Shown here one piece after another: positions 15,439 to 29,544 of a stretch of DNA of 64,000 nt; position 1 is the stretch's first letter, and each line of letters opens with the position of its first letter. The notes beneath the pieces are model-generated. The model had not been told where the DNA came from and made no database searches. It was given only the letters and a program-made list of their open reading frames with translations. The position numbers and the translations under genes are program-made. Origin of the DNA: an uncultured Acidimicrobiaceae bacterium (GTDB taxonomy: Bacteria > Actinomycetota > Acidimicrobiia > Acidimicrobiales > RAAP-2); assembly GCA_963832925.1 (NCBI GenBank), contig CAWHVY010000013.1, forward strand, positions 29,797 to 93,796, in the 5' to 3' direction.

Positions 15439-15994
15439 TGGTTGCGTAGGCACGTCAGCGAGCATAACGAGCCAGTCAATGCGAGAAAAGGGCGTCGCGA
15501 ACGTTCGCGGCACGCCCGGTTGTCCTCCACGTCGTTCGTCTCAGGTTTTCTGGTCGAACGCGGACGCGAGAGTGACGTCGTCGCACGAAAGGTCGGCCGA
15601 CGCGACCTTGGTGCGAAACTCGTCGTTCGTCGTCCTCATGTCGATTCACACGATATTCACATGCAGTTGCTACAGAATTGTCATAACGCCCGGCTCTTTC
15701 AGATTCGGCGTCACTGCATACCTGATGAGCGTTCGATTCTGGACAACAACGATGGCGGCGTTTTCGAGGTGAATCGCTCGATCGCACGTCGGCGCTACTT
15801 CAACAATGTGTGTACATAGCCGACGCTTCGTCACCCTTTATCCTGATCACGTTCGTGAACGAACCGTGTGCCTAACTCACTCGACCACGGAGCGCGACAC
15901 TGCGTGGCGACGAATCAGTTCGGCGTGACACAGTTAACCTTTTTTTAGGCAACCTTCGATGAGATTGTCGTTCTCGAAAGTAAGGGGTACCCCC

Positions 15995-16801
15995 ATGATT
16001 GCTCGTGCCACACAGTCCATTGCCGCTCAAAAGCGGCGTTACATAGTTGTCGCCGTCGCATTCGCGCTGGTCGCGGGGCTCCTGGTGAGTTTCGTCGTGA
16101 CGCCGAACGCTCAGGCTGACTACGCCACCGCGTGCGGTTATGGCTACAGTTCGACGGGCACGTTCGGCTACGGATCCGGCAACACCTTCGGCTACGGCTA
16201 CGGCTACGGTGGCACCTTCCACTTTGGCTACGGCGATCAGGTTTGCCCACTCTTCGTCACCAGCTCATCGCTGCCCGCGGGCACCGTTGGCGTCGTCTAC
16301 CCGACCCAGCAGTTGACCGCCACCGGCGGCACGGACTCCTACACATGGACGCTCGCGTCAGGCGCTCTCCCAGCCGGGCTCACGCTGTCCAGTGCCGGCG
16401 CTATCACTGGTACGCCGACGGCATCAGGTGCCTTCTCCTTCGTGGTCTCGGCAACCGACGCGAACGGACAGTCCATCCCAGGCAATCTGTCGATCGCCGT
16501 GGCCTCGGCGACGACGACGACCGTGAAGTCGGCGCCCAAGACCCCCCACCCGACCAGGATCATCGGTGCTGTTCGCTCCCGCAAGACGAGCAACATCACG
16601 ATCGTCGGTTCGGGCTTCTACGGCCAGCCGAGGATCACCTCGAATGACGCGGGCACTCGCGTCGTGGTTCGCCACGACACCGGCACGCAACTCAAGGCCG
16701 TCGTTCAGGTACGAGGCATCGGTCACGTTGGCCGCGTCTTCACCTTCACGATCCGCGACGCAGATGGTCACGTGGGTCGCATCAGGTACGTGCTTCGCTA
16801 G
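15995..16801 (+). CDS. Secreted/surface protein 1: signal peptide, Cys-bracketed Gly/Tyr loop, putative Ig (He_PIG-like) domain, Thr linker, basic C-terminal beta domain
   Basis: Hydrophobic h-region ending NAQA; LPAGTVGVVY..QLTATGG...YTWTLASGALPAGLTLSSAGAITGTPTASGAFSFVVSATD is a typical putative-Ig repeat. Confidence 0.8.
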   Translation: MIARATQSIAAQKRRYIVVAVAFALVAGLLVSFVVTPNAQADYATACGYGYSSTGTFGYGSGNTFGYGYGYGGTFHFGYGDQVCPLFVTSSSLPAGTVGVVYPTQQLTATGGTDSYTWTLASGALPAGLTLSSAGAITGTPTASGAFSFVVSATDANGQSIPGNLSIAVASATTTTVKSAPKTPHPTRIIGAVRSRKTSNITIVGSGFYGQPRITSNDAGTRVVVRHDTGTQLKAVVQVRGIGHVGRVFTFTIRDADGHVGRIRYVLR

Positions 16802-16815
16802 TAACGGGATCGTCG

Positions 16816-16859
16816 ACACAACACGAACCCCCCTCATTTGAGGGGGGTTCGTGTTGTGT
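16816..16859. terminator. Intrinsic terminator hairpin after surface protein 1
   Basis: Perfect 21-bp inverted repeat ACACAACACGAACCCCCCTCA / TGAGGGGGGTTCGTGTTGTGT. Confidence 0.85.
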
Positions 16860-17344
16860 ACCGAGAAGCATTGCGTTGAGTATTCCAACGTACGTCGGTC
16901 GGATTCACCACGTGCACCACTTCGCCGAGAACGAATCGGTACCGAGTCAGCGTCGGTTCGAGACGCGCCCGAGCCAGATGTGCCCGGGACGTTGCACAAA
17001 GTTTCTAAGAATTGTGAATTCTCTTCGTTACGAGTCGCGACGGTGGCTCGCGTTCCTGATGGCGGGCACAATCGCATTACACGCGACACTTATTTTGTGA
17101 GCCACGGGCGAGTCGTCCACGTTACGAATCAGTCCAATTTACTAGTCACGATTCAACCATCACGCTGGTGTCAGCCCTGATGAAAACCGTTTAAGCGACG
17201 TAGATCCTCTTTGTAATCGTCGTAACAAAGACGCGACGAAAAATTCGTTGGCGTGATTGATTACGTTCAACACACCCGCTACGGTTCTTTGTGTAACCAC
17301 TTTGCCCTCCAGATCCCGGGGCCTTACCCCGGATCGAGGTCGCC

Positions 17345-18253
17345 ATGATTGCACGGGCCGCAAAGTCATTTACACACCACAAGAAGAGGTTCATTCCCGT
17401 AGCGGTCGCGGCAGCGCTGTTATCGGGACTCTTCGTGAGTCTCGCGGTGACGCCAAATGCCCTGGCTGACTACTCCGTGGGGTGTGGCTACGGGTACTCG
17501 TCTGGTGGCACCTTCGGTTATGGCACCGGGGCCGCGTTCGGTTATGGCTACGGCACCGGCGGCACCTTCCACTACGGCTACGGCGACCAGGTCTGTCCGA
17601 TCTTCGTCACCACCGCGACGCTCCCCACGGGAACTGTTGGCACGCCCTACTCGTCACAGCTCACGGCAACCGGCGGCACCAACTCCTACACCTGGACGAT
17701 CAGCTCTGGCGCCCTTCCGAACGGCCTGACGCTCTCGACCGGCGGCCTCATCAGCGGAACCCCCATCGTCAGTAACGTCTTCGGATTCAACGTGACCGCC
17801 ACCGATGGCAACGGACAGCCCGCGACGCGCACACTCTCGATCACGATCTCGCCGAGCGGCGGTGGCGGTGGCGGTCCAACCACCACCACGACGACGCTGG
17901 TTGGCACGACCACGACGACGCTGGTCGGCACCACCACGACCACGCTGGTCGGCACCACGACCACGACCATCGTCACGACGCCCCCACCGAAGAGACCGAG
18001 CGGCTGTGTTCTGCGCGGTGCCATTCTTTCGAGGAAGACGATTGACGTCTTCATCACTGGTCACGGCTTCTACGCCCAGCCCAGTATCCGGTCGAATGAT
18101 CGAGGTACGCGATCGGTCGTTCGCCATGACAATGGCTCAAGGTTGGATGCGGTCGTTCAAGTGAAGGGATTCGGAAACATCGGACGTCTCTTCACCTTCA
18201 CCATCACGAACGCCGATGGATTCTCTTGTCGCATTGACTACCGCTTGCACTAG
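17345..18253 (+). CDS. Secreted/surface protein 2, paralog of 15995-16801 with a longer Thr-rich linker
   Basis: Same architecture with Cys at the same codons (47 and 84); YTWTISSGALPNGLTLSTGGLISGTP Ig motif. Confidence 0.8.
   Translation: MIARAAKSFTHHKKRFIPVAVAAALLSGLFVSLAVTPNALADYSVGCGYGYSSGGTFGYGTGAAFGYGYGTGGTFHYGYGDQVCPIFVTTATLPTGTVGTPYSSQLTATGGTNSYTWTISSGALPNGLTLSTGGLISGTPIVSNVFGFNVTATDGNGQPATRTLSITISPSGGGGGGPTTTTTTLVGTTTTTLVGTTTTTLVGTTTTTIVTTPPPKRPSGCVLRGAILSRKTIDVFITGHGFYAQPSIRSNDRGTRSVVRHDNGSRLDAVVQVKGFGNIGRLFTFTITNADGFSCRIDYRLH
17882..17974 (+). repeat. 24-bp coding tandem repeat, (TTTTTLVG)x3 plus TTTTTIV
   Basis: Directly visible ACC/ACG-rich units ending CTGGT(T/C)GGC. Confidence 0.9.
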
Positions 18254-18310: not shown

Positions 18311-18414
18311 CATTACGAGACGAGATCTCATTGGTCCATGATCGAGCGCCCCTTGCAGCGAGACGCTGCAAGGGGCGCTCGCGGATTCGTGCTACACAAG
18401 ACCAGGAGGTCTTG

Positions 18415-19242
18415 ATGCTCGCGCGACTACGCGTTCTGATTCAAATGGAGAATGCGCTATGGCGCACTCCGGATGTGCCTTTTATGGTTCGATTCCTCTA
18501 TGCGCTCTCAAGGATCACTACGCTCCCCCTGACCGGCTTCGTGTGGTGGTTCGGTGGTCGACTATATAGCGACAGTCGGCTCGGGCTTCTCTTGATGCCT
18601 GGCTACCTCCAAGAGTGTCGATCAGTTCTCGGAGCCGTCTCGCCGTTGGTCGCTGCGCCAGATAGTCCACTCTTCGTTCTCGACATAGGCGCGAACGTGG
18701 GACAATTCGCAAGGACCCTGCTCGCCCTCGACGCATCGGCACAGGTTCTGTCGGTGGAGCCGAACCCCGTCGTACTTCCAATTCTGCGGAAGAACCTAAC
18801 TGCATTCGCCGGTCGATCATTCATCCTTACGCGGGCCGTCGGACCAGAGATGAAGCAGTCGGACTTCTTCTTCGTCGTGGGAAAGTCCGCTCAAGGGTCG
18901 ATGTACGCGGAGAACGCGGTCAAAGACCTCGTGGGCGATCCCACCCCACGGCGTGTACCCATCGAGGAAGGGCCGATCACGTCTGAACAATTCGCTCAGA
19001 TTGGTTGGAGCCCGTCACAGATCGTCGACCTCGTGAAACTGGACGTTGAGGGCTACGAAATGACCGCGCTCGCTGGATTGTCAACGATTGAGTTCCGATT
19101 CCTCTGGGTCGAGGTAATCCCCGATCGGCTCGGCGGGGTAAGAGTTGATGAGTTCATCAACACACTTCAGTCATCGACGTCACGTACGGCCGCGGTCGTT
19201 GCGAGTCACGGGGACAACGTCTTGCTCGAACTGCGTCGGTAA
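18415..19242 (+). CDS. FkbM-family SAM-dependent methyltransferase
   Basis: VLDIGANVGQF, VLSVEPNP, DLVKLDVEGYEMTAL; AGGAGGT SD before ATG 18415. Confidence 0.9.
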   Translation: MLARLRVLIQMENALWRTPDVPFMVRFLYALSRITTLPLTGFVWWFGGRLYSDSRLGLLLMPGYLQECRSVLGAVSPLVAAPDSPLFVLDIGANVGQFARTLLALDASAQVLSVEPNPVVLPILRKNLTAFAGRSFILTRAVGPEMKQSDFFFVVGKSAQGSMYAENAVKDLVGDPTPRRVPIEEGPITSEQFAQIGWSPSQIVDLVKLDVEGYEMTALAGLSTIEFRFLWVEVIPDRLGGVRVDEFINTLQSSTSRTAAVVASHGDNVLLELRR

Positions 19243-19271
19243 GTGCTACCCGCATCGCAGGAGTGACGCGA

Positions 19272-22265
19272 CTAGTTGTCCGCCCTATAGAGATAGCCAT
19301 TCGTCAGCCCATTCACGAGGACGTGTCGCGTACCTTTGAGAGCGCTTGTTCCGGCCACGTACGTGGTGTGCAGCACGACCAGCTTTCGCTTCACCATCGG
19401 CCCGGACGGCGTGCCAACCAGATCGAGGTTGGGCGCACCGGCGATCGATGCGACCTCAACGTTGGCGTACTCCACCGACGCCGGTCCGTTGTTGGTCACC
19501 GCGTTGGCGTAGAGGAATACCGTGAGGCTCGTCGTTCCACTCACTGGGTCGAACGAGGTTCCGTAGTGGAGCCAGCCACTTGAAGTAGTGAGCGACGGCA
19601 TCGGCGCGCACGTATCGCTCGGCTGTTCCCATACGCAGATGCTGGGAGCCGCCCCATTGACGCTCCTCGTCCAGAGCGAGAGCAATACCGGCCCGGAATG
19701 CCACTTGAGGACGGTGGTCTCGCACGCGCTGTCAGCCAATGCCGTGAGTTTCAACGCAGGCAGGCCCGTGGGTGCGACGCCATTGACAATCGTTGCGCTC
19801 AGCTCACTCGAATGCCGCAACGGTTTCGCGTCTTGACAGTTCTCTACAGGACTCCACTTGCCATGCTCGAACGTCCCGTTGCCGATTAGCGATGCCGACG
19901 CCGACATCTTGACGGTGGCCGTCACGTTGTTCCTTCCTTGGGGACGGACCGACAACGCAATGCCCTGGAGTGACGTCCCGCTACTCGTGGCGAGTCGATA
20001 CTGCCGCCTGCCCGGCAATATCAAACGCGTCGACAGTTCATTGCCAGCGAGCGCCCAATTTCCAACCGGCGCCAGTTGCGTCACTGAGACGACGCCGGCG
20101 AGCGGTTTGCTCGTGATGAGCGCCGTGCGCGCGGGGAGAATCCCCAAGTCCCCGAGATTTGGCGCCGAGCTCGCCACGGTGGCGACGTTGCTCCACGGCT
20201 TGTGATAGCGCGGCTTGATCTTGAAGATGGAGAGCGGGCCGAAGTTCTTCACTGAGGCCATCTCGGGGTCGTGGCGGAGCGCGGACGCAAGGGCTATTGG
20301 AGAGACGATGTCGCGGCCCGGGAACTGACTTTCGACGTCGCCGCGAACCAGCACGAGCGGCGTGTCGAGCGCGTTCAGTATCGCGCCCGCGGTCGCCCAC
20401 TGATGTCCGAGCAACGCGCTCGACTCCTCCTGCAACGCAGTGAGGAGACCGACTGAGGTCTGCACGTAGCCCTGCGCTGTAGGCACGATCACGTGACGAT
20501 TGAGCATGTCGACGATGAAACTGTCATTGCCATAGAACCAGGTGTAGGGCATCTGATAAAAATCGTCGGCCGGCATGACCAGGAGTGACCCGTTCGGAGA
20601 ATTCGAGCCGTTGAGGTAACTACCCATCGATGTCCAGTACGCCGGAATGGTGACGTGTGTCGAGGGGAGTTCTTGTCGTTTGCCCGAGATCATGATGCCG
20701 GTCCAAATCGGGAAACTGCCGGCGATGATAGCGACCACCAGTGCGGCCGTGATCCAGCGAATGGTAACGACCTGTTCTCGAGGACGCGGACGTCGCTGAT
20801 TGAAACGGATCACCGTGGCAGCGCCAAACTTCGAGGTGTGGTCGATGAGTACGCCCACCAACAAGGCGTAGCCGAGACCCGCAGCCATCAAGAACCGACC
20901 GGGTTCGCGAAGGAGCCAACCGTGCGGGAGGTTGTAGAGGGGATCAAAGAGCCAGCGGCCGGGTTCTTCGGTCCCAGTGCTCAGGAGCACCAACACCAAC
21001 GAACTGAGCGCAATCAGCGCGATGAATCGGTCCTCGCCGCCCTTTCGACTTGGTCGTCGACGGGCCATGACACCAAAGGCCATTAACGGCACCACGACCG
21101 GTATCAAGTCAAGCGGGAAGAGAGCGAAGGCACGGGCGTAGGGGTAGTACTCCGGATTGGTCCACCCCCAGGTGTTGTTCAGCCAGAGCCCGTTCGTGAG
21201 CGTCGCGCGCGACTCGGTGAACGCCCACGCCGAGAGCGATGAGAGGCTGCCCGTGGCGACCACGCTAAAGGCCCCGACCGCCGGTATCAACCAGTACAAC
21301 GACGCGAGGACGAGCACGCCGCCGCCCACCAACGTCGCCCGAAGTGCACGAAGGGCGTGCTGTCGGTCATACTTCGCCCACGAGATCAGCACCGCGAAGG
21401 ACGTGGTCGCGATGACCATGCCGACAAGTGGAGGATTGGCGTAGGCGTAACCGACGAAGGGAGCGCTGAGCGCGAAGACAAGACCCACCTGCCACAGCCG
21501 GAGGCGCGCATTGCCATACGAGATCACCGCCGCGGCGAGGAGTGGAATCAGCACCATCGCGCTCAAGAAGACATCGTTGACCTGGCCGACCGAGCTGAAT
21601 GTCATGGGACTGAAGAAGTAGGCGATGCTCACGATGGCACCCGTGAATGGTGCAAAGCCGAGCGATCGGGCGAGTGCGCCGGCACTCACCAGTACCAAGG
21701 CGACCAAGAGCGAGAGCCAAAGACGTTGGGCGAGTCCTCCAGAGCCGCCAAGGTGCACTGTCGTCCACTCCACGACCGCCCATGGGAGGCGGAGTTGGTT
21801 ATTGACCGGGCCCCCAAGGTTGTCACCGCTCCAGCCATAACTGGCGAAGATGCGACCAATCCACGCCGTACCCACGGGCGGCGATATGTCACCTCCCGCA
21901 ATGACTGTTCCGGAGCGAAACCACGTTTGAGTGATCAGTAGACCTAGAACGCCGAGTCCTGCAATCGTCCAACGCCATGACACTCGCCAGTCGATGTTCG
22001 CGTCGGTGCCGTCCACCGTCCGCTGCCTGGCCCCTTGGACGAAGAGGGCGATTGCTCCGAGAACGAGTCCTGCAAACCCAAGGTCGGCCAGAGTACTTTG
22101 CAGACCGCCGCGCGGAAAGAGTTCGGCAAACCCTACGAGTGCGAGCGCGATCAGTACCAGGAGTGAGCGTGATGCTCGGTACCTGGACGAGCCCATGGCG
22201 CCATCTGGCACCGCATTCTCAGTGCTCTCCCCCGCAAGGTCTCCATCCGCCGGCGCGTCGTTCAA
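19272..22265 (-). CDS. Large GT-C-like integral membrane glycosyltransferase, AftD/DUF3367-like, with a C-terminal carbohydrate-binding-like domain
   Basis: About 12-14 TM helices. Segments GGDISPP, WSGDNLGGPVNNQ, LAQRLWLSLL, AYFFSP, LREPGRF and AYWTSMGSYL..SLLVMP parallel recalled AftD segments. C-terminal LIGNGTFE beta domain. Confidence 0.7.
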   Translation of the reverse strand: MNDAPADGDLAGESTENAVPDGAMGSSRYRASRSLLVLIALALVGFAELFPRGGLQSTLADLGFAGLVLGAIALFVQGARQRTVDGTDANIDWRVSWRWTIAGLGVLGLLITQTWFRSGTVIAGGDISPPVGTAWIGRIFASYGWSGDNLGGPVNNQLRLPWAVVEWTTVHLGGSGGLAQRLWLSLLVALVLVSAGALARSLGFAPFTGAIVSIAYFFSPMTFSSVGQVNDVFLSAMVLIPLLAAAVISYGNARLRLWQVGLVFALSAPFVGYAYANPPLVGMVIATTSFAVLISWAKYDRQHALRALRATLVGGGVLVLASLYWLIPAVGAFSVVATGSLSSLSAWAFTESRATLTNGLWLNNTWGWTNPEYYPYARAFALFPLDLIPVVVPLMAFGVMARRRPSRKGGEDRFIALIALSSLVLVLLSTGTEEPGRWLFDPLYNLPHGWLLREPGRFLMAAGLGYALLVGVLIDHTSKFGAATVIRFNQRRPRPREQVVTIRWITAALVVAIIAGSFPIWTGIMISGKRQELPSTHVTIPAYWTSMGSYLNGSNSPNGSLLVMPADDFYQMPYTWFYGNDSFIVDMLNRHVIVPTAQGYVQTSVGLLTALQEESSALLGHQWATAGAILNALDTPLVLVRGDVESQFPGRDIVSPIALASALRHDPEMASVKNFGPLSIFKIKPRYHKPWSNVATVASSAPNLGDLGILPARTALITSKPLAGVVSVTQLAPVGNWALAGNELSTRLILPGRRQYRLATSSGTSLQGIALSVRPQGRNNVTATVKMSASASLIGNGTFEHGKWSPVENCQDAKPLRHSSELSATIVNGVAPTGLPALKLTALADSACETTVLKWHSGPVLLSLWTRSVNGAAPSICVWEQPSDTCAPMPSLTTSSGWLHYGTSFDPVSGTTSLTVFLYANAVTNNGPASVEYANVEVASIAGAPNLDLVGTPSGPMVKRKLVVLHTTYVAGTSALKGTRHVLVNGLTNGYLYRADN

Positions 22266-23152
22266 TTGCCAACTCGCCGATGCGAATCCGTGGTGTCTGG
22301 ACGTCGCGGAAGCTTCGCCCTATGACCAAACGAGTCGGCGGCAAGTCCACCGACCATGGCCAACGCCTGGCCCGCCTTGAGGACCACCAGACCGACACCA
22401 AGCGAGTTGGCGAGGGCCCGAGGCTGGCGGAGCCACCGTCGGCCAGTCATCTCGCGCATGGTGCCGATGCCGTGTTTCTTTACGAATAGTGCGACCCCGG
22501 GCGCGTAGTACGCCTTCTTCATACAGATATTGAAGAATCGCACTCGTCCCTCTTCGTGCACGATCTCAGCGTTCGTTCGAGACCTGGTGCCGAGTGACGC
22601 CGTTCGTTGTCCGAGGTCCCAGTCCTCGGCTCCGGTCATCGCCTCATCGAATCCTCCGACTCGATGAAAGACCTCGGCGTTGAAGAACCTCGGCGCCTCG
22701 ACGAATTGATCACCCTCATAGAACGACCGTTCGAAGGCACTCACTTTGGCCCAGTAGCCCTCACCGACGGTCCGTTCAGGGATTACGACGCTCACCGCAC
22801 CCTCGGCGATGCCACTGACCACTTCAGCGACGACGTTCGTCGAGAGGATCATGTCAGAGTCGATGAACCCGACGATTGGCGCCGACGTGTGCGCGGCGCC
22901 GGCGTTTCGCTGTGCGGATCGTTCCGGTCCACACGTCAATACGTGATCCGCCAGAATCTCCGCGATCGCGACCGTCTCATCCGAAGAACCGTTGTCGACC
23001 ACGATGATCTCGCAGGGATGCGTCTGAGCACGAAGTGATTCAAGGCAGGCTCGGAGTGTTGTCGCGGAATTGCGCGTGGGAACCACCACCGCGACATCCG
23101 AAGGTCGATCCATAGCTCGCCGTTTCCCCAGCTTTGTAAGCCCGCTCATCAC
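22262..23152 (-). CDS. GT2-family glycosyltransferase (start may be ATG 23113)
   Basis: VVVPTRNS, IIVVDNGSSDET, GPERSAQRN, FIDSDM (DxD), GGFDE...EDWDL. Confidence 0.93.
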   Translation of the reverse strand: MMSGLTKLGKRRAMDRPSDVAVVVPTRNSATTLRACLESLRAQTHPCEIIVVDNGSSDETVAIAEILADHVLTCGPERSAQRNAGAAHTSAPIVGFIDSDMILSTNVVAEVVSGIAEGAVSVVIPERTVGEGYWAKVSAFERSFYEGDQFVEAPRFFNAEVFHRVGGFDEAMTGAEDWDLGQRTASLGTRSRTNAEIVHEEGRVRFFNICMKKAYYAPGVALFVKKHGIGTMREMTGRRWLRQPRALANSLGVGLVVLKAGQALAMVGGLAADSFGHRAKLPRRPDTTDSHRRVGN

Positions 23153-23363
23153 AACCTAGCGAGTATTCGTGCTGATGAAACCTGGCGCAACCAGGAGTTG
23201 CGTCCCGAGACGGGACGCTGTCACCATCCGATCGATGGCCCAACTGCGACCTCACCGCGACGTTCGACGTCGACGTTGTGGCTGCAATGACGCCGCCGCC
23301 GAATATCCCTGACGATTCTTCTCGCTGCGTCCGAAATTCTGAATGAAGAACTAAGTTTTTTAG

Positions 23364-24065
23364 GTGGACTATATGGATTTCTATGGAAACCATAAGACGT
23401 TCATCACCAAAACCGACGCGCGTCTGTCAAAGATCATCCAGTTGGCTGAAGAGTTGAAGCCGAAGGAACTCCTCGATGTCGGGTGCGGCGACGGGTACCT
23501 GCTGACGCAACTCGCCTCTCGGATCGACGCACATCTCTACGGACTCGATGTCTATCCCATTGAGACCGATCACTGGACGTACAAGCAGGCTGACCTCACC
23601 CAGGGCCTGCCGTTCGATGACGAGATGTTCGATGTGGTCATCCTGGGAGAAGTGATTGAACACGTGCCCGATCCCGACTTCCTCCTCGAAGAGATCTGGC
23701 GCGTGCTCGCCCCCGGCGGCAAGGCGATCATCACGACTCCCAATCTTGCGTCGTGGGCCAACCGCGTGTTGTTGCCGTTGGGGATCCAGCCCCTCTTCAC
23801 CGAGACCAGCAGCCGAAAGAAGTTGGGACGTCGATTCAAGTTCCTCGGCCAAGGATCGAATGTCGAAGGTCATTTGAAGATCTTCACGTTGCCTGCTCTC
23901 AAGGAACTGATCGTTGCCTGTGGGTTCACGATCGATGGCGTGTGGGGCGTACCCTTCTTCTTCCCATTCCCTCTCTCGAAGTTTGACGAGTTGCTGACGG
24001 CCGTCCCGTCCCTCTCCTCCGGGCTCTTCGTACTCGCTCAAAAGGTTGACACTCGCTCAACGTGA
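23364..24065 (+). CDS. Class I SAM-dependent methyltransferase (Methyltransf_11-like)
   Basis: LLDVGCGDG, LPFDDEMFDVV, EVIEHVPDP, RVLAPGGKAIITTPN. Confidence 0.92.
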   Translation: MDYMDFYGNHKTFITKTDARLSKIIQLAEELKPKELLDVGCGDGYLLTQLASRIDAHLYGLDVYPIETDHWTYKQADLTQGLPFDDEMFDVVILGEVIEHVPDPDFLLEEIWRVLAPGGKAIITTPNLASWANRVLLPLGIQPLFTETSSRKKLGRRFKFLGQGSNVEGHLKIFTLPALKELIVACGFTIDGVWGVPFFFPFPLSKFDELLTAVPSLSSGLFVLAQKVDTRST

Positions 24066-24113
24066 GTGATCCGCACCGGTAGTCATGAAGAACCCACGCC
24101 GTAGGGTTTAAAC

Positions 24114-26339
24114 GTGCAGAGCCACTTCGAGCCGCGTCGATTTCTCAGTCGTGCGGATTGGGTGATGTTGGGTCTGGGACTCTTGATCGGCATCGCGGTC
24201 TGTATCCCGTTCTTCGGCGGAGGCCGCCTGTTCCTACTGGACTGGTCGATCGGTCCCACCACGCCGATCATCTCAATCAATACACTCGGCCTCTTTGGCG
24301 GTCTCACGTCGGGCGTCCTCGGCTCGCTCCTGACGGGGCTGTTGAACTGGGCGCTCGGCTCGGTCTCGACGTGGTTGCTGTTCTTGTTGTTCTTCCCCAC
24401 GGCGTTTCTCGGCATCTCTCGTCTCGCCGGTGGTTCCCTCACGAGCCGGATCTCCGCGGGGGTCTTGTACACGATCAACCCGTTCGTATTCAATCGACTC
24501 TTCGTCGGGCACATCGACCTTCTCATCGGCTACGCGCTGTTGCCATTCGCCGTGGTCTCGGCGCTTCGCATACAAGGACCGCTCTGGCGCTACGCCTTGC
24601 GGGTCTCGCTCTGGTGGGCCGCACTCACTGCGATCACCCCGCACTTCTCATGGATCTACGGCGTCGTGGTACTCGTCGTCGCCATCGTCGCGGCCTCGCA
24701 CGGCGCGCTGCGCGATTCGGTGCTGCGTCTCGTCGCCACCGCCGCGTCGTTCTTCATCATGTCGATGTACCTCTTGCTGCCGCATTTCGTCACCACCCTC
24801 GCGACATCGAATGGTCCATCGAGTCTCGCGCTCTATCAAACGTCCGGCGACCCGAGGTTCGGACTCTTCGGCAACGTCGCTGGTCTTTACGGTTTCTGGC
24901 GTCTCGGTCCGGGCCCCACGTTGCCAAAGAACCTCATAAGCGGCTGGCCGTTCATTTTCCTGGCGATATTTCTCGTCGCCACCACCGGAGCGTGGGTTGC
25001 GCTTCGTACGACCAGGTCGAGCGGCGGGAACGACGCGGAATCGATCGAGGGGAACGCGGCGCGAACTCCGATTAGTGATCTCCTCCAATCGGAACCACCA
25101 TCGTCGGACCCAGCCGTTCCCGCGTCTCGGGCGTTCGTCGCTATCTCATTGCTGGCCGTGGGCGTCATCGGCTACCTCCTCGCGTTGGGGAGCCAGGGCC
25201 CGACGGGAGCGCTCTTTCGATGGTGCTATGTCCACGTGCCGTTCTTCGCCATCATGCGAGAACCTCAGAAGTTCGTGATGTTGCTCGCACTCACCTACGC
25301 CGTGTTCTTCGGATGGGGTATCGCGCACGTCTCGAGAGTGCTGACGTCAACCAAAGCGACCCGCGCCGCGGTGGCCGCACTCGTCCTCGGAATCGCGCTG
25401 CCGCTGGGTTACACGCCCACGATCTTCAATGGGCTCAGCGCACAGATCGCTCCCAGTCACGTGCCGAGCTCGTACCAAAAAGCCAATGTCCTCATGGGCG
25501 ACGGCGCGGGGAGCGTGCTGGCGTTGCCTTGGCACCTCTACCTCTCATATCCCTTCACGAATGATCGCGTCGTGGCCAACCTCACACCCAGCTTGTTTGA
25601 TCGCGACGTGATCTCGGGCGACAACGTCGAAGCCGGCGGGGTCGAGACGCAATCGACGTCCCTCGAATCGAAATACCTCGCGGCGCTCTACGCGCGCGGA
25701 TCGACACTCACACACTTCGGGGCGCTCATCGCACCGCTCGGCGTCAAGTACGTCGTGCTCTCGAAGACCGTCGACTGGCCCGCGTACCTCTGGCTCACGC
25801 GCCAGTCCGATCTCAAGAGAGTCTTCAATTCCTCGTCACTCGAAGTGTGGAAGAACCTCGCCTACGACAACATCGGCCAGTCGCACGTCACCTTGAGCGC
25901 GGTCGCGTCGCTGAACGACGCAGTGAAAGAAGTGCACAACGCATCATCGTCCTTCGGGTTGGTCTCGCCACGCGTGGCTCGCGAGGCGCGCTCACGGTCG
26001 TCCTCGACGTCCTCGACCGACGCCACGTCGGGCGACAGCGTAACGATGGTGTCGCCGGTCGCCTTTCACATCGACCCCGGTTCGCCGGGTTGGGTCGAAA
26101 TCGACGAGCCCTACCAAGTCGGCTGGTCCCTCAACGGCGTCGCGGCGCTCCCCTCGGCAGAAGGCTCCATGCTGGTCCACGTGGGCTCGCACGGAGGGGA
26201 CGTGGTCTTCACGCCGTGGCGATCGGCTCGCCTCGGCTACCTCGTCTCCGGTGGGGCATTTCTCATGATCGTCCTCGCCTTGAACGTCGAGAGAGTTCGT
26301 CGTCGCCTACGTCCTCGAGTCAGAGCGCCGGCTCCCTAG
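24114..26339 (+). CDS. GT-C-like polytopic membrane protein resembling mycobacterial Rv0226c
   Basis: GRLFLLD and YTINPFVFNRLFVGHIDLLIGYALLPF match the recalled Rv0226c pattern (GYLLLRD; WNPYVAERLLQGHWSLLVGYGCLPW); also MREPQKF and a C-terminal TM helix. Confidence 0.68.
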   Translation: MQSHFEPRRFLSRADWVMLGLGLLIGIAVCIPFFGGGRLFLLDWSIGPTTPIISINTLGLFGGLTSGVLGSLLTGLLNWALGSVSTWLLFLLFFPTAFLGISRLAGGSLTSRISAGVLYTINPFVFNRLFVGHIDLLIGYALLPFAVVSALRIQGPLWRYALRVSLWWAALTAITPHFSWIYGVVVLVVAIVAASHGALRDSVLRLVATAASFFIMSMYLLLPHFVTTLATSNGPSSLALYQTSGDPRFGLFGNVAGLYGFWRLGPGPTLPKNLISGWPFIFLAIFLVATTGAWVALRTTRSSGGNDAESIEGNAARTPISDLLQSEPPSSDPAVPASRAFVAISLLAVGVIGYLLALGSQGPTGALFRWCYVHVPFFAIMREPQKFVMLLALTYAVFFGWGIAHVSRVLTSTKATRAAVAALVLGIALPLGYTPTIFNGLSAQIAPSHVPSSYQKANVLMGDGAGSVLALPWHLYLSYPFTNDRVVANLTPSLFDRDVISGDNVEAGGVETQSTSLESKYLAALYARGSTLTHFGALIAPLGVKYVVLSKTVDWPAYLWLTRQSDLKRVFNSSSLEVWKNLAYDNIGQSHVTLSAVASLNDAVKEVHNASSSFGLVSPRVAREARSRSSSTSSTDATSGDSVTMVSPVAFHIDPGSPGWVEIDEPYQVGWSLNGVAALPSAEGSMLVHVGSHGGDVVFTPWRSARLGYLVSGGAFLMIVLALNVERVRRRLRPRVRAPAP

Positions 26340-29300
26340 GGCCAATCGCCACGCCGAGGATCAAGTCGGCGACCTCGCCCCACTCGAGGATCCCTCCGGC
26401 ACTCACTTTGGGAACACCGGCTTCGGGAATCGTCTTGAAGTACTCACAGAGTGCTCGTCCGAGTGCGTCGGGAGTGGGCGCCGTCAGAATGCCGCCCGAC
26501 GCGCTCACCGAATCGCGAAGTCCCGCAACGTCATAGGCGATCGCGGGCGTGCCCAAGGCTGCCGCCTCCGACACCACGAGCCCCCAGCCCTCTCGCACCG
26601 AGGTCGCTACCAACACGTGTGCGCGTTGCAGACGTTCGAACTTCTCAGCGTGGGAGATACCGCCGAGGAACTGCACGCCCGGCGGTGATGACTTTCGAAG
26701 CTGCGCTTCCATGGGACCAGAGCCGATGATCCACATCACCGCGCGCGGATCTTGTTCGTGCAGCATCGAGAAGGCGCGAATCGCGTCGTGGGGCCGTTTG
26801 TGCGACTCGAGGCGTCCGATGAAGACGACGGTCGGTCGGGTCTCACGGGGCAACGGCTCAGTCGGCACTTCGATTGTGACGCCGACGGGCACGACGTGGA
26901 CGTCCGTCATCCCGTACGCCACGAGACTCTCTCGACTGGACTCCGATATGGTCACGACTTTCGTGGAGTGATACGACTTCAGCCACTTCGGTTCGAGGAT
27001 GTGATGACCGACCCACGACAGTGGGAACGGCATCTGCAGGTACCAGAGCTCTCGGCACACTTGGTAGGCGAGTCCGACGACGGGAACGTCGTCGACCCAC
27101 TTGGGTGACAGGAATGGCCTCGTGTTGATCTCGTCGACCACGAGGTCGTAGAGACCACTCCCTTCGTTCCGGTAGTAGTTGCGCGCTTCGCGGTAGACGC
27201 TGTATCGCGAACCGCGACGGATGATGTGCAGTCCGTCCACGACCTCAGAGTGAGGTCGACCCGCGATCTCGGCACAGAAGAGCGTGACGTGATGTCCTTC
27301 GCTGATCCAGTGACGCGCCACTGAGTCCGTGTAGAGCTCGGCACCGCCGGCGTTGGGGTGCGAGACGTCGCGCCAGTTGAGGATCAAGATACGAAGGTCG
27401 CGGCGGGGCGCCGGCACCATTGCTGCACCGCCCGTGACGGCGAGCGACGCGGTGACCTCGACCTCGTCGCGCGCCGACCGTGCCGCGGACGCCGGACCCG
27501 TCGCGCGGTCGTAGTAACGAAGGATCCGCAGACGGTAGAAGATCGCCAACGTGTCCCAGAGCAGGCCGCGAATGCTCTTCACCGACACCGTCGAGGGGAA
27601 CTTCGCGTCGATCTCAACGGGTATCTCCACGAAGTCCGAGTACCCCATCTCGCGCGCCACCACGAACAACTCGAGGTCGAAGCCGAAGTTCTTCTCCACC
27701 ATGCTCGGCAACACCGCGATCAGCACGTCGCGCCGTATCACTTTGATGCCGGTCTGCGTATCGCGAAGAGGGGCTCGGAAGAGAAGTCGGGTCAGTTGCT
27801 CGTAGGAGAAGGAGAAGAATCGACGAAGCGGCGGATACGCCACTTTGGACTCGGGGTGACGTTTACTGCCGAAGGCAATGTCCGGGCCTTCTTCATGAAC
27901 GACCTTCGCGAACTCAATGAGCAAGTTCGGCGACAAGGCGAAGTCGCTATCCAGAAATCCGAGATATCGACCTCGGCCTTGCAACAGCCCTTCACGCAGT
28001 GCGGCGCCCTTGCCTTGACTCTCCTCCATGTGCAGCACACGCAACGTCTCGCTGCTCAGGTGTGGGAATGAGTCCTCACTGTGATCGGTGCTGCCGTCAG
28101 AGACCGCGAGTATCTCGAATGTCAATCCAGTCGCGCCCAATACGTCCACGCAGTCAGCCACCCGTTGGGCGAATCCCGGCCCGGGATTGCGAAACGGCAC
28201 GACGAGGGTTAGATCGACCGTCACGGTGGGAAGGATGAGCTCGCTGAGTCGATCGACGTCACGGCGCGCGGCCGCGGTGGTGAGCGCTTTCCACGCCGGC
28301 CAGGCCCCGGCGATCAGGACGACGCCGACGGCCACCAACATGATCAGCGCGAGTTCGACCATCGAGTGGTGGCGGAATGTCGTCACGACCGCGACTAATG
28401 CGACCGAGAGCCACGAGATCATCGACACGTACGAGCGACGAGCGAGGTGCAGGTAGATGAGGAGGTTCAAGACGCCGAGTCCGGCCGACTCGAGCGCGAG
28501 GGGCCGAATCACCGTTACCGCCGGACCGTACTTGGCGCCGAAGAGGACGCTGACGAGCAACGAGGAGAAGAGGATCATCCCCAAGGCGAAGATCATGCCG
28601 AGCAGCGTCACAATCTTGAGGCTCTGCATGAACGCGCGACGGCTTGCGTCGCTGATGCCGTTGCCGTCGGCCAACAGTGGGAAGGCGACCGTGACGATTG
28701 CGGTAGGGACGAGGAGCGCGATGTGGGCCGCGATCGCGCCGGCGGCGTACTGCCCCGCGAGATTCGCACTGAAATAATGGCGGCTTAGGAACGTGTCGAT
28801 GTTCGTCAAGACGGTGAATCCGGCCAGTGCACACACCGAGAACACGATGTCGCGAAGCGCGGTATTGACCGCCTTGCCGCGCTTGGCGGTGAACGCGTGG
28901 TGGCGCGATGAGTACGCCAGCGACGCCGTCGTGAAGATCTGCGCGATCAACGTCGCGGCAATGGCGCCGGTCACACCGAAGCTCATGTAGCCGAGTACCG
29001 CGCCGAGCACGAGTCGGATCGGTCCCCCGCCGACGAAGAGCGCGAAGGCCGCGGGTCGAAATCGGTACTCCCCAATGAGCGAACCCTGCAGGGCCGCACC
29101 GACGGCGGCGAACGGAATCCACGCCGCAACCAACACGACCGACATCGGCGAGGTCAGGTGCAAGAAGGAGTCCAGCGGCACCGCACAGGCCAACATCAAT
29201 ACCGAGCCGATGACGCCGAAGACCGCGACGCGCTGGACCATCTTGCTGACGTTGTGCGAAGTCTCGCTGGCGCCGCGACCGACAACGGCTTGTGTCGCTG

Positions 29301-29544
29301 CGATCTGAATGGCGATGATCGGCACGGACAGGAGGTTGATAACCCCGAGTATCGCGCCGAGTGCGCCATATTGATCGGGGCCGATCACTCGACTCACGAC
29401 CACGTGGAACGCAAAATTGGAGACACTGACGCCGGCGGTCGCCAGTAAGAAGGAAAGTGCCCCTCGACCGAATATGCCCGAAGTGAGCTCCGACCACATC
29501 GTCTTCGCAGCAGACTGCGACGCTTGGTTTAGTTGATTGGACAT
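26320..29544 (-). CDS. Triple fusion: Wzx/MATE-like flippase + polyprenol-phosphate sugar synthase-like GT2 + GT4 glycosyltransferase
   Basis: One 1074-aa ORF. About 12 TM helices (VVSRVIGPDQYGALG); then LVVPF..VSDGSTD..QGKGAALREG..FLDSD..GSKRHP..DTQTGIK..FDLEL; then LNWRDVSHPNAGGAE..FIGRLESHK..EGWGLVVSEA. Confidence 0.88.
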   Translation of the reverse strand: MSNQLNQASQSAAKTMWSELTSGIFGRGALSFLLATAGVSVSNFAFHVVVSRVIGPDQYGALGAILGVINLLSVPIIAIQIAATQAVVGRGASETSHNVSKMVQRVAVFGVIGSVLMLACAVPLDSFLHLTSPMSVVLVAAWIPFAAVGAALQGSLIGEYRFRPAAFALFVGGGPIRLVLGAVLGYMSFGVTGAIAATLIAQIFTTASLAYSSRHHAFTAKRGKAVNTALRDIVFSVCALAGFTVLTNIDTFLSRHYFSANLAGQYAAGAIAAHIALLVPTAIVTVAFPLLADGNGISDASRRAFMQSLKIVTLLGMIFALGMILFSSLLVSVLFGAKYGPAVTVIRPLALESAGLGVLNLLIYLHLARRSYVSMISWLSVALVAVVTTFRHHSMVELALIMLVAVGVVLIAGAWPAWKALTTAAARRDVDRLSELILPTVTVDLTLVVPFRNPGPGFAQRVADCVDVLGATGLTFEILAVSDGSTDHSEDSFPHLSSETLRVLHMEESQGKGAALREGLLQGRGRYLGFLDSDFALSPNLLIEFAKVVHEEGPDIAFGSKRHPESKVAYPPLRRFFSFSYEQLTRLLFRAPLRDTQTGIKVIRRDVLIAVLPSMVEKNFGFDLELFVVAREMGYSDFVEIPVEIDAKFPSTVSVKSIRGLLWDTLAIFYRLRILRYYDRATGPASAARSARDEVEVTASLAVTGGAAMVPAPRRDLRILILNWRDVSHPNAGGAELYTDSVARHWISEGHHVTLFCAEIAGRPHSEVVDGLHIIRRGSRYSVYREARNYYRNEGSGLYDLVVDEINTRPFLSPKWVDDVPVVGLAYQVCRELWYLQMPFPLSWVGHHILEPKWLKSYHSTKVVTISESSRESLVAYGMTDVHVVPVGVTIEVPTEPLPRETRPTVVFIGRLESHKRPHDAIRAFSMLHEQDPRAVMWIIGSGPMEAQLRKSSPPGVQFLGGISHAEKFERLQRAHVLVATSVREGWGLVVSEAAALGTPAIAYDVAGLRDSVSASGGILTAPTPDALGRALCEYFKTIPEAGVPKVSAGGILEWGEVADLILGVAIGPREPAL

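Follow-up and report, generated by a model that had tools for sequence, protein, structure and literature searches.

Two paralogous genes, here called P1 and P2, lie in a 64,000-nt stretch of contig CAWHVY010000013.1 (GCA_963832925.1) from an uncultured Acidimicrobiaceae bacterium; this whole stretch is referred to as the window. Both genes encode predicted secreted proteins that open, directly after the signal peptide, with a cysteine-bracketed segment made up largely of glycine and aromatic residues (the GY module). Comparison with its relatives indicates that this segment is a real, selected and previously unnamed small domain family. It further indicates that the module is portable, serving as the N-terminal head of proteins with a variety of downstream domains, a point that was not part of the initial annotation of the window, in which the two loops had been noticed. 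The reading of its structure and role that we favour, tentatively and at a little less than an even chance, is that the module is a disulfide-stapled four-strand Gly/aromatic beta-meander at the mature N-terminus, serving as the distal, uncharged aromatic contact head of short envelope-attached stalk proteins.

Conservation of the GY module and selection on its sequence

The initial annotation had placed the pattern C47-[36 aa]-C84 at identical codon positions in both proteins (16133-16246 and 17483-17596) and had counted 13 Gly and 11 Tyr/Phe among the 36 residues of the P1 loop. The coordinates and sequences proved to be exact and a recount gave the same numbers; the placement of a Cys-bracketed Gly/aromatic module right after the signal peptide was also borne out across the family. 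Both cysteines were kept in 93 of 93 distinct family loops and the offset D-Y-x3-C was invariant. The length of the loop had been described as fixed along with its Cys spacing, which is true of the two paralogs and their close relatives; across the family the Cys-to-Cys spacer ranged from 34 to 43 residues (modes 36 and 37; among the first 63 proteins, 36 had a 36-residue spacer and 18 one of 37).

Conservation within the loop was position-specific. Glycines G4, G22, G32 and G34 were found in 100% of the 93 distinct loops, and nine positions were aromatic in at least 95% of them (Y3, Y5, F11, F19, Y21, Y23, F29, Y/F31, and Y33). Phe replaced Tyr freely at several positions (F11, F19, F29, Y/F31), and each 36-residue loop contained seven to ten Tyr at conserved positions. 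Changes in loop length were confined to three connectors and the residues before Cys2, that is, after position 10, at positions 17-18, after position 25, and just before Cys2, and the four G-aromatic runs between them were free of gaps, with an occupancy that was mostly 95% or more. The resulting layout of runs and connectors can be written C-GYGY / SSxG(x) / (T)FGYG / (S/T)Gxx / FGYGY / xxGG(T) / FxFGYG / (D/N)(Q/E)V-C. The module contains no Lys or Arg and has an isoelectric point (pI) of ~4.2. The Cys pair and many individual positions were invariant among proteins that are only 40-50% identical overall and that differ in architecture.

The loop composition is biased (35% Gly, 27% Tyr+Phe), and the order of the residues is periodic beyond what this composition produces. 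Counted from Cys1 in the P1 loop, 11 of 12 aromatics fall on odd positions and 11 of 13 Gly on even positions. The observed numbers of G-aromatic-G and aromatic-G-aromatic triplets in this loop were reached by 4 and 1 of 20,000 composition-matched shuffles, respectively, and those in the P2 loop by 118 and 14 of 20,000.

P1 and P2 are 54% identical by BLASTP and 62% identical over the residues aligned in a MAFFT codon alignment. In the codon alignment, protein identity was 84% in the loop versus 58-61% in the other domains, while identity at four-fold-degenerate sites was 0.41 in the loop versus 0.43-0.50 elsewhere. Because four-fold sites were as diverged in the loop as elsewhere despite the 84% protein identity, the conservation of the loop is attributed to purifying selection, and gene conversion as its source was rejected on the same four-fold-site divergence. 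The stronger constraint on the loop than on the diverged flanking domains that the initial annotation had pointed out is therefore upheld.

Its remark that the loop was not recognised as a named bacterial domain also stood. No Pfam or NCBIfam domain scored above its curated cut-off over residues 42-85, where KRTAP and Keratin_2_head (E ≥ 0.2) were the only matches below threshold. In P1 and P2, neither the loop nor the ~85 C-terminal residues had a significant Pfam match, and NCBIfam gave nothing on either protein. Literature searches found no description of such a bacterial module.

Distribution and modular use

A word-indexed search returned ~60 full-length relatives, for which the most specific name was 'Ig domain-containing protein' from metagenome-assembled genomes (MAGs) of Acidimicrobiales; a search restricted to the module region added further architectures. 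The module is rare. A profile of the mature module matched only 32 clusters at E ≤ 0.001 among 1.84 billion representative proteins, and every complete protein among these clusters carried it at residues ~38-90, immediately behind the hydrophobic segment and always offset from it by 5 residues. When 185,579 species genomes were scanned, 19 loci turned up in ~13 MAGs labelled Acidimicrobiales or Acidimicrobiaceae, which came mostly from palsa, bog, peat, and soil. At least 6 of these 13 genomes encoded two or three GY-headed paralogs, and the genome of the window (2.79 Mb, 92% complete) had two copies only. Of 401 genomes sampled from the class, only that genome and 1 of the 13 further species in its genus had the family proper. 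The short variant occurred in a third genome of the sample, and a fourth match was spurious: the locus (L030, in genome G330) is a SpoIID-like open reading frame (ORF) without a Cys-GY loop and was rejected as a false positive of the module profile.

The named genomes that bear the module were all Acidimicrobiales MAGs bar one contig labelled 'Candidatus Sulfotelmatobacter' (L020, JBEKWZ010000003.1). Its 222-aa GY-headed protein is identical to that of an Acidimicrobiales MAG (L021, JBEKCK010000006.1) from the same SPRUCE peat project, so the assignment of this contig to the Acidobacteriota is probably a binning error.

In every family member the signal peptide and the module came first, and at least five arrangements of domains followed them (Table 1). 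In the C-terminal 85 residues all types were basic (median pI 11.6), and the C-terminal ends were almost always basic, or OmpA-like. The module and the He_PIG domain are nearly uncharged, versus a pI of 11.9 (P1) and 10.4 (P2) for the C-terminal domain. This domain, a basic beta-sandwich of ~85 aa without a match in Pfam or NCBIfam, closes at least five secreted proteins in the genome at their extreme C-terminus: P1, P2, and three large Ig-repeat proteins (reading frames of 491, 619, and at least 1549 aa). Only 2-4 residues ever separate its end from the stop codon. The sandwich has the look of a lineage-specific C-terminal attachment or sorting domain without a name. Since it is common to different secreted proteins and is exchangeable for a peptidoglycan-binding OmpA-like domain, the C-terminus is the end expected to attach to the envelope, which would place the GY module at the distal end.

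Signal peptide, predicted fold, and proposed disulfide

At the end of the signal segment, positions -3 and -1 were always small across the family (A/G/S) and position -2 was free (Q/L/T/V/H/S/R/P). Small residues at -3 and -1 around a variable -2 are the signature of a cleavage site in use, which argues that the signal peptide is cleaved; removal between AQA and DY would make the module the extreme N-terminus of the mature protein, which would be 227-261 aa long in P1 and P2. The hydrophobic part of the signal segment was itself unusually conserved, with L25, G28, and S32 invariant or nearly so and a G28-x3-S32 motif. The lipobox pattern [LVI][ASTVI][GAS]C was absent: P1 reads TPNAQA before the predicted cut and DYATAC after it. 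Cys1 lies at +6 and follows T-A or V-G.

AlphaFold2 (AF2) models were made of the full protein from a 46-sequence family alignment and of the module alone from 26 sequences. The full model had a long N-terminal helix corresponding to the signal segment and two confident beta-sandwiches, the He_PIG and the C-terminal domain, each with a predicted local distance difference test score (pLDDT) of ~90. A Foldseek search of this model against the PDB returned tandem Ig/cadherin-like stalks (SraP, protocadherins, and Bacteroides SGBP-B) and no match for the loop. In the low-confidence model of the isolated module, strands were placed at residues 8-10, 16-18, 24-28, and 34-38, which are the four G-aromatic runs. 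The pattern of conservation and indels fits four short beta-strands with tolerant turns better than it fits an unstructured low-complexity loop. When the PDB was searched with the module profile, only UVR8/RCC1 repeats appeared, at E > 4, and were dismissed as a chance likeness of YGY.KNG.FGYG to the RCC1 hairpin motif.

With an even number of strands, both ends of the module would meet at the disulfide. A homolog of VKOR is encoded in the genome (Table 1), making an extracytoplasmic disulfide plausible, and the number of Cys was even in 67 of 80 family members; a Cys47-Cys84 disulfide in the mature protein is a candidate. A second Cys pair (18005-18007 and 18227-18229), spaced by 74 residues and located at the two ends of the C-terminal sandwich, was present in P2 and all P2-type orthologs, while both of its members were absent from P1-type proteins. 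This co-variation suggests that the sandwich of P2-type proteins carries a second disulfide.

Short relatives of the module were found in another Acidimicrobiales family, with loops of 16-19 residues such as C-GYGYSPTIGYGYGN-C-PPPP, C-(GY)7-8-GT-C-PPPP, and C-GYGY-SPTx-GYGYG-x-C-PP. Each of these loops can be interpreted as one hairpin, with the same Cys pair closing it. The proteins concerned (L029:838-1758 and L029:1812-2819, both on the minus strand, L031:1-879 (-), P0159, and P0160) continue with a poly-Pro linker and six repeats of the form GYW.VA.DGG.FSF..A.F.GSMGG+.LN.P.VGM that have no Pfam match, a body that may be propeller-like.

A proposed contact head and its alternatives

According to the favoured reading, the module would fold, once the signal peptide is gone, as a four-strand antiparallel beta-meander whose ends are stapled by Cys47-Cys84. 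Because of the alternation, ~10 Tyr/Phe side chains would lie on one face with a flat glycine face opposite. The basic or OmpA-like C-terminal domain would probably fix the protein to the anionic cell envelope, with He_PIG and the Thr-rich linker as its stalk, and the aromatic pad may bind by stacking on a ligand, a surface, or another head.

Several observations weigh against this reading. The pLDDT of the loop was 43-67 in the full AF2 model and averaged 51 in the model of the module alone, never rising above 70, so the module may need oligomerisation or a partner, or may be partly disordered. PDB searches by profile and by Foldseek found no structural homolog of the module. Across the family no partner gene was conserved with it. 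The GY proteins lack LPXTG or any other recognised wall anchor although the genome has a sortase, and the proposed anchoring by the basic C-terminal domain is drawn from charge, position, and replacement by an OmpA-like domain. They are also short (268 and 302 aa) with one Ig domain, and do not have the large repeated stalk of fibrillar adhesins. Finally, the fixed position after the signal peptide and the conserved hydrophobic segment fit an N-terminal anchoring or processing role equally well.

Self-assembly had been among the roles considered in the initial annotation, and here we regard it as unlikely, though deserving some weight. The module would then be a cross-beta element of amyloid- or silk-like type in which the glycine faces of (G-aromatic)n strands pack as steric zippers between molecules, the heads polymerising or zipping cells or proteins into a surface lattice or fibre and the disulfide limiting the register as in chaplins. 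The strict G-X alternation does recall silk and the steric zippers of amyloid, the loop of the simplest relatives is purely C-(GY)7-8-x-C, and the missing confident monomer fold is what would be expected if structure arose only on assembly; the occurrence of differently stalked GY-headed paralogs in one genome and the syntenic P1/P2 pair count in its favour too, and monocistronic genes with their own terminator-like hairpins would suit abundant structural proteins. Against this, conservation by position, with turns that tolerate indels, is at least as well explained by a defined small fold, a closed 36-residue loop fused to a folded Ig domain restricts long in-register stacking, and the contexts examined held no nucleator, chaperone, or secretion partner genes such as accompany curli or Fap. 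A bolder version is more doubtful still: GY heads may be a new bacterial self-recognition or cross-beta class, whose stapled hairpins fasten to one another, as a protein Velcro, by way of their glycine and tyrosine faces, so that P1, P2, and OmpA-tethered versions co-assemble into a surface lattice or mediate cell-cell cohesion. If so, peat and soil Acidimicrobiales would possess an independently evolved bacterial counterpart of the high-Gly/Tyr and glycine-loop matrix proteins of animals. An N-terminal envelope anchor or tether, to which we give similarly little credence, would have the aromatic/glycine hairpins lodge, right after export, in a wall layer or at the membrane interface, or would leave an uncleaved signal anchor with a juxtamembrane loop, in likeness to the lipid-modified Cys and Pro/Thr linker of lipoproteins. 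The invariant position at a 5-residue offset from the hydrophobic segment agrees with such a role but is also explicable by an inherited 5' cassette within a narrow family, and the unusual conservation of that segment, including G28-x3-S32, has to be set against the small -3/-1 and free -2 residues that argue for a cleaved signal peptide and against a Cys1 that lies 6 residues after the AXA site outside any lipobox. A Pro/Thr/Gly tether often follows the module at once, and Tyr is favoured at membrane interfaces. In the OmpA_C-type relatives (P0130, L023) the module takes the place that belongs to a membrane anchor in OmpA, Pal, and MotB; on the other hand, the OmpA-like swap itself, and the basic C-terminal domain on other large secreted proteins, point to attachment at the C-terminus.

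Covalent chemistry directed at tyrosine, either dityrosine cross-linking into a resistant matrix or O-glycosylation of Tyr by the neighbouring glycan-assembly cassette, appears very unlikely. The number of Tyr at conserved positions speaks for it, and in the window and close relatives the neighbouring genes encode methyltransferases, GT2, large polytopic membrane proteins, and a flippase-GT fusion. Tyr O-glycosylation of S-layer proteins is established in Paenibacillus and Thermoanaerobacter and offers a precedent. However, the more distant family members have unrelated neighbourhoods that lack glycosylation genes, the Thr-rich linkers are more obvious glycan acceptors, and free exchange of Phe and Tyr fits packing or stacking better than hydroxyl chemistry. 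A tyrosinase search of the genome gave no match and was uninformative, since the control genomes had no match either. Least credible is a low-complexity spacer without a specific role, conserved by recent common descent only. Biased composition, Pfam similarities that are compositional only, and a narrow taxonomic range are what such a spacer would show, yet the loop remains 84% identical in spite of saturated synonymous sites, and the Cys pair and many positions persist across proteins 40-50% identical with different architectures; the selection analysis essentially excludes a functionless spacer.

If the contact-head reading is correct, a minimal module of ~40 residues with one disulfide, made almost wholly of Gly and Tyr/Phe, would stand at the tip of several kinds of envelope protein in uncultured Acidimicrobiales, peat, bog, and soil lineages with small genomes. 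It would be a new domain family for the catalogues, Pfam and NCBIfam having none, and would offer a starting point for learning how these uncultured but abundant actinobacteria make contact with their surroundings; the compact aromatic pad could also interest designers of adhesive or self-assembling peptides. The basic sandwich shared by five secreted proteins hints at an undescribed lineage-specific surface-attachment system. The family is tiny and none of its hosts has been cultured, and its function is read from sequence alone.

Gene structure and genomic context

The features of P1 and P2 and the loci named above are collected in Table 1. The first ATG of the P1 ORF in the ORF listing is at 15959, upstream of the family start. 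It is probably not the start of P1, because the alignment of all relatives begins at the Met at 15995, 7 nt downstream of an AAGGGG Shine-Dalgarno sequence. He_PIG scored 47.6 and 51.1 bits in the two proteins against a Pfam cut-off of 24, an assignment that concerns the protein body and not the loop. The linker that follows is ~12 aa in P1 versus ~48 in P2. The Thr-rich linker of P2 is a probable O-glycosylated stalk and adjoins a glycosyltransferase/methyltransferase cassette at 18331-29544. Its Thr blocks differed in number and sequence among orthologs. The proteins end in RIRYVLR (P1) and RIDYRLH (P2), and when these C-termini were read from the sequence neither an LPXTG-like motif nor a hydrophobic tail was seen, so that neither is assigned to the sortase-anchored proteins.

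Table 1. Sequence features of P1 and P2, domain architectures of the family, and other loci referred to in the text. Positions are those of the window unless a locus or protein identifier is given; residues are numbered from the start Met of each protein.
Feature	Position or proteins	Strand	Description
Gene P1	15995..16801	+	268 aa; start at Met 15995, shared by family
P1 signal peptide	15995..16117	+	41 aa, ends TPNAQA; signal peptidase I cut predicted before D42
P1 GY module	16118..16249	+	D42-Y-x3-C47-[36 aa]-C84-P85
P1 cysteines	C47, 16133-16135; C84, 16244-16246	+	numbered from Met 15995
P1 He_PIG Ig-like domain	16265..16501	+	PF05345, E 2.4e-12; AF2 pLDDT ~90
P1 basic C-terminal beta-sandwich	16538..16798	+	pI 11.9 over last 84 residues
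Hairpin 3' of P1	16820..16856	+	intrinsic-terminator-like; AACACGAACCCCCCTCATTTGAGGGGGGTTCGTGTT
Gene P2	17345..18253	+	302 aa; paralog of P1
P2 signal peptide	17345..17467	+	41 aa, ends TPNALA
P2 GY module	17468..17599	+	D42-Y-x3-C47-[36 aa]-C84-P85
P2 cysteines	C47, 17483-17485; C84, 17594-17596	+	numbered from Met 17345
P2 He_PIG Ig-like domain	17600..17848	+	PF05345, E 1.9e-13
P2 Gly/Thr-rich linker	17855..17998	+	~48 residues; four tandem TTTTT(L/I)V(G/T) units of 8-9 residues each at 17879-17977
P2 basic C-terminal beta-sandwich	17999..18250	+	pI 10.4; additional Cys pair C221 and C295
Hairpin 3' of P2	18286..18303	+	terminator-like; CCCCCCTCAAAAAGGGGGG
Architecture: He_PIG, basic sandwich	P1, P2, and most relatives		
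Architecture: Gly/Thr linker, basic sandwich	P0127-P0129, L014, L020-L022, L024, L026		without He_PIG
Architecture: Thr linker, OmpA-family domain	P0130, L023		E 3.6e-9 (P0130)
Architecture: He_PIG or linker, either of two other unnamed C-terminal domain types	P0122, P0133, P0134; P0126, P0140, P0152		
Architecture: extra inserted domain	P0054, P0142, P0144		
Basic sandwich in Ig-repeat protein	G000:C14:59507-59749	-	
Basic sandwich in Ig-repeat protein	G000:C12:49888-50133	-	
Basic sandwich in Ig-repeat protein	G000:C14:542511-542735	+	
VKOR homolog	G000:C2:271940-272308	+	93.5 bits, above Pfam cut-off; single copy in genome
Sortase homolog	G000:C1:146293-146706	+	69.6 bits; single copy in genome

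The non-coding DNA 5' of the genes, ~480 bp for P1 (15514-15994) and ~540 bp for P2 (16802-17344), is unusually long for a 2.8-Mb genome. P1 and P2 are considered separate transcription units because each has its own GC-rich hairpin after it and 480-540 bp of non-coding DNA before it. The hairpin 3' of P2 was entered by the scan on the minus strand, where its T-rich tail lies, and its palindromic stem can form on either strand. The long non-coding stretches may be leaders of strongly expressed genes. In the long upstream regions Rfam found nothing except one miRNA model on the terminator hairpin (E 0.095), and a sigma-70 promoter scan found no sites. A 38-aa ORF was called upstream of the P1 ortholog in two relatives (L006:9740-9856 and L007:1746-1862).

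In the window and its close relatives the gene order is M13 peptidase, P1, P2, methyltransferases, a ~990-aa membrane protein, and GT2, and the P1/P2 pair is kept in synteny. Distant family members lie elsewhere, one adjoining genes for ribonucleotide reductase and a formyltransferase and another adjoining sugar-nucleotide genes and fragments of transposases. These unrelated contexts led us to reject a partner or maturation gene dedicated to the module, and with no conserved partner gene nothing points to a dedicated system for its maturation, secretion, or nucleation.

Comparison with known families and systems

The only recurrent profile similarity of the module was to mammalian high-Gly/Tyr keratin-associated proteins, which, like the keratin-head 'glycine loop' and loricrin, are rich in Gly/Tyr/Phe and contain Cys. 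The initial annotation had been reminded of such animal structural proteins, and 20 of 26 modules did match KRTAP (PF11759; best E 0.0026). KRTAP scores spanned 12.6-17.3 bits, or 13.8-17.3 in a narrower set of searches, against a gathering threshold of 21.1, which places the module outside the family, and the likeness is compositional: the animal proteins belong to unrelated organisms and have no position-specific Cys bracket. The chaplins of Streptomyces are closer in setting. These small amyloid-forming domains are likewise actinobacterial, secreted by the Sec pathway, and ~40 residues long with two conserved Cys that are thought to pair, and a cell-surface role is proposed in both cases. 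In contrast to the Gly/aromatic GY module, which is fused to folded domains, chaplins are aliphatic-hydrophobic and are free or sortase-anchored, and the chaplin profile (PF03777) gave no match at E ≤ 1 with the full proteins or at E ≤ 10 with the isolated modules.

Searches at the same thresholds gave no match to CBM1 (PF00734) or hevein/CBM18 (PF00187). The fungal CBM1 domains and hevein resemble the module in their size (30-43 residues), Gly-rich and Cys-closed construction, exposed aromatics that form a flat binding face, and Thr/Pro-rich linkers, but have motifs of their own and four or eight Cys in two to four disulfides, where the GY module has one Cys pair. No more than a structural analogy is offered by trpzip-type beta-hairpins and silk-like (G-X)n sheets, in which alternation puts the aromatics on one face, with cross-strand aromatic contacts and a terminal staple; the AF2 models of the GY module are of low confidence.

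At the level of the whole protein, stalked or fibrillar adhesins are built from an N-terminal adhesive domain, an Ig-like stalk, and a C-terminal anchor, and in Gram-positive stalked adhesins the unannotated N-terminal region distal to the anchor is the typical site of adhesive domains (Monzon and Bateman, PMC9210967). The GY proteins differ from these adhesins in having a head of only ~44 residues without a known adhesive fold, and no recognised anchor. They share with them predicted secretion, a stalk domain in the form of one He_PIG domain with the fold of SraP, cadherin, and SGBP-B stalks, a Thr-rich linker, and an unannotated N-terminus opposite a shared C-terminal domain. By this analogy, the GY proteins are a miniature form of the stalked-adhesin plan with a new head domain.

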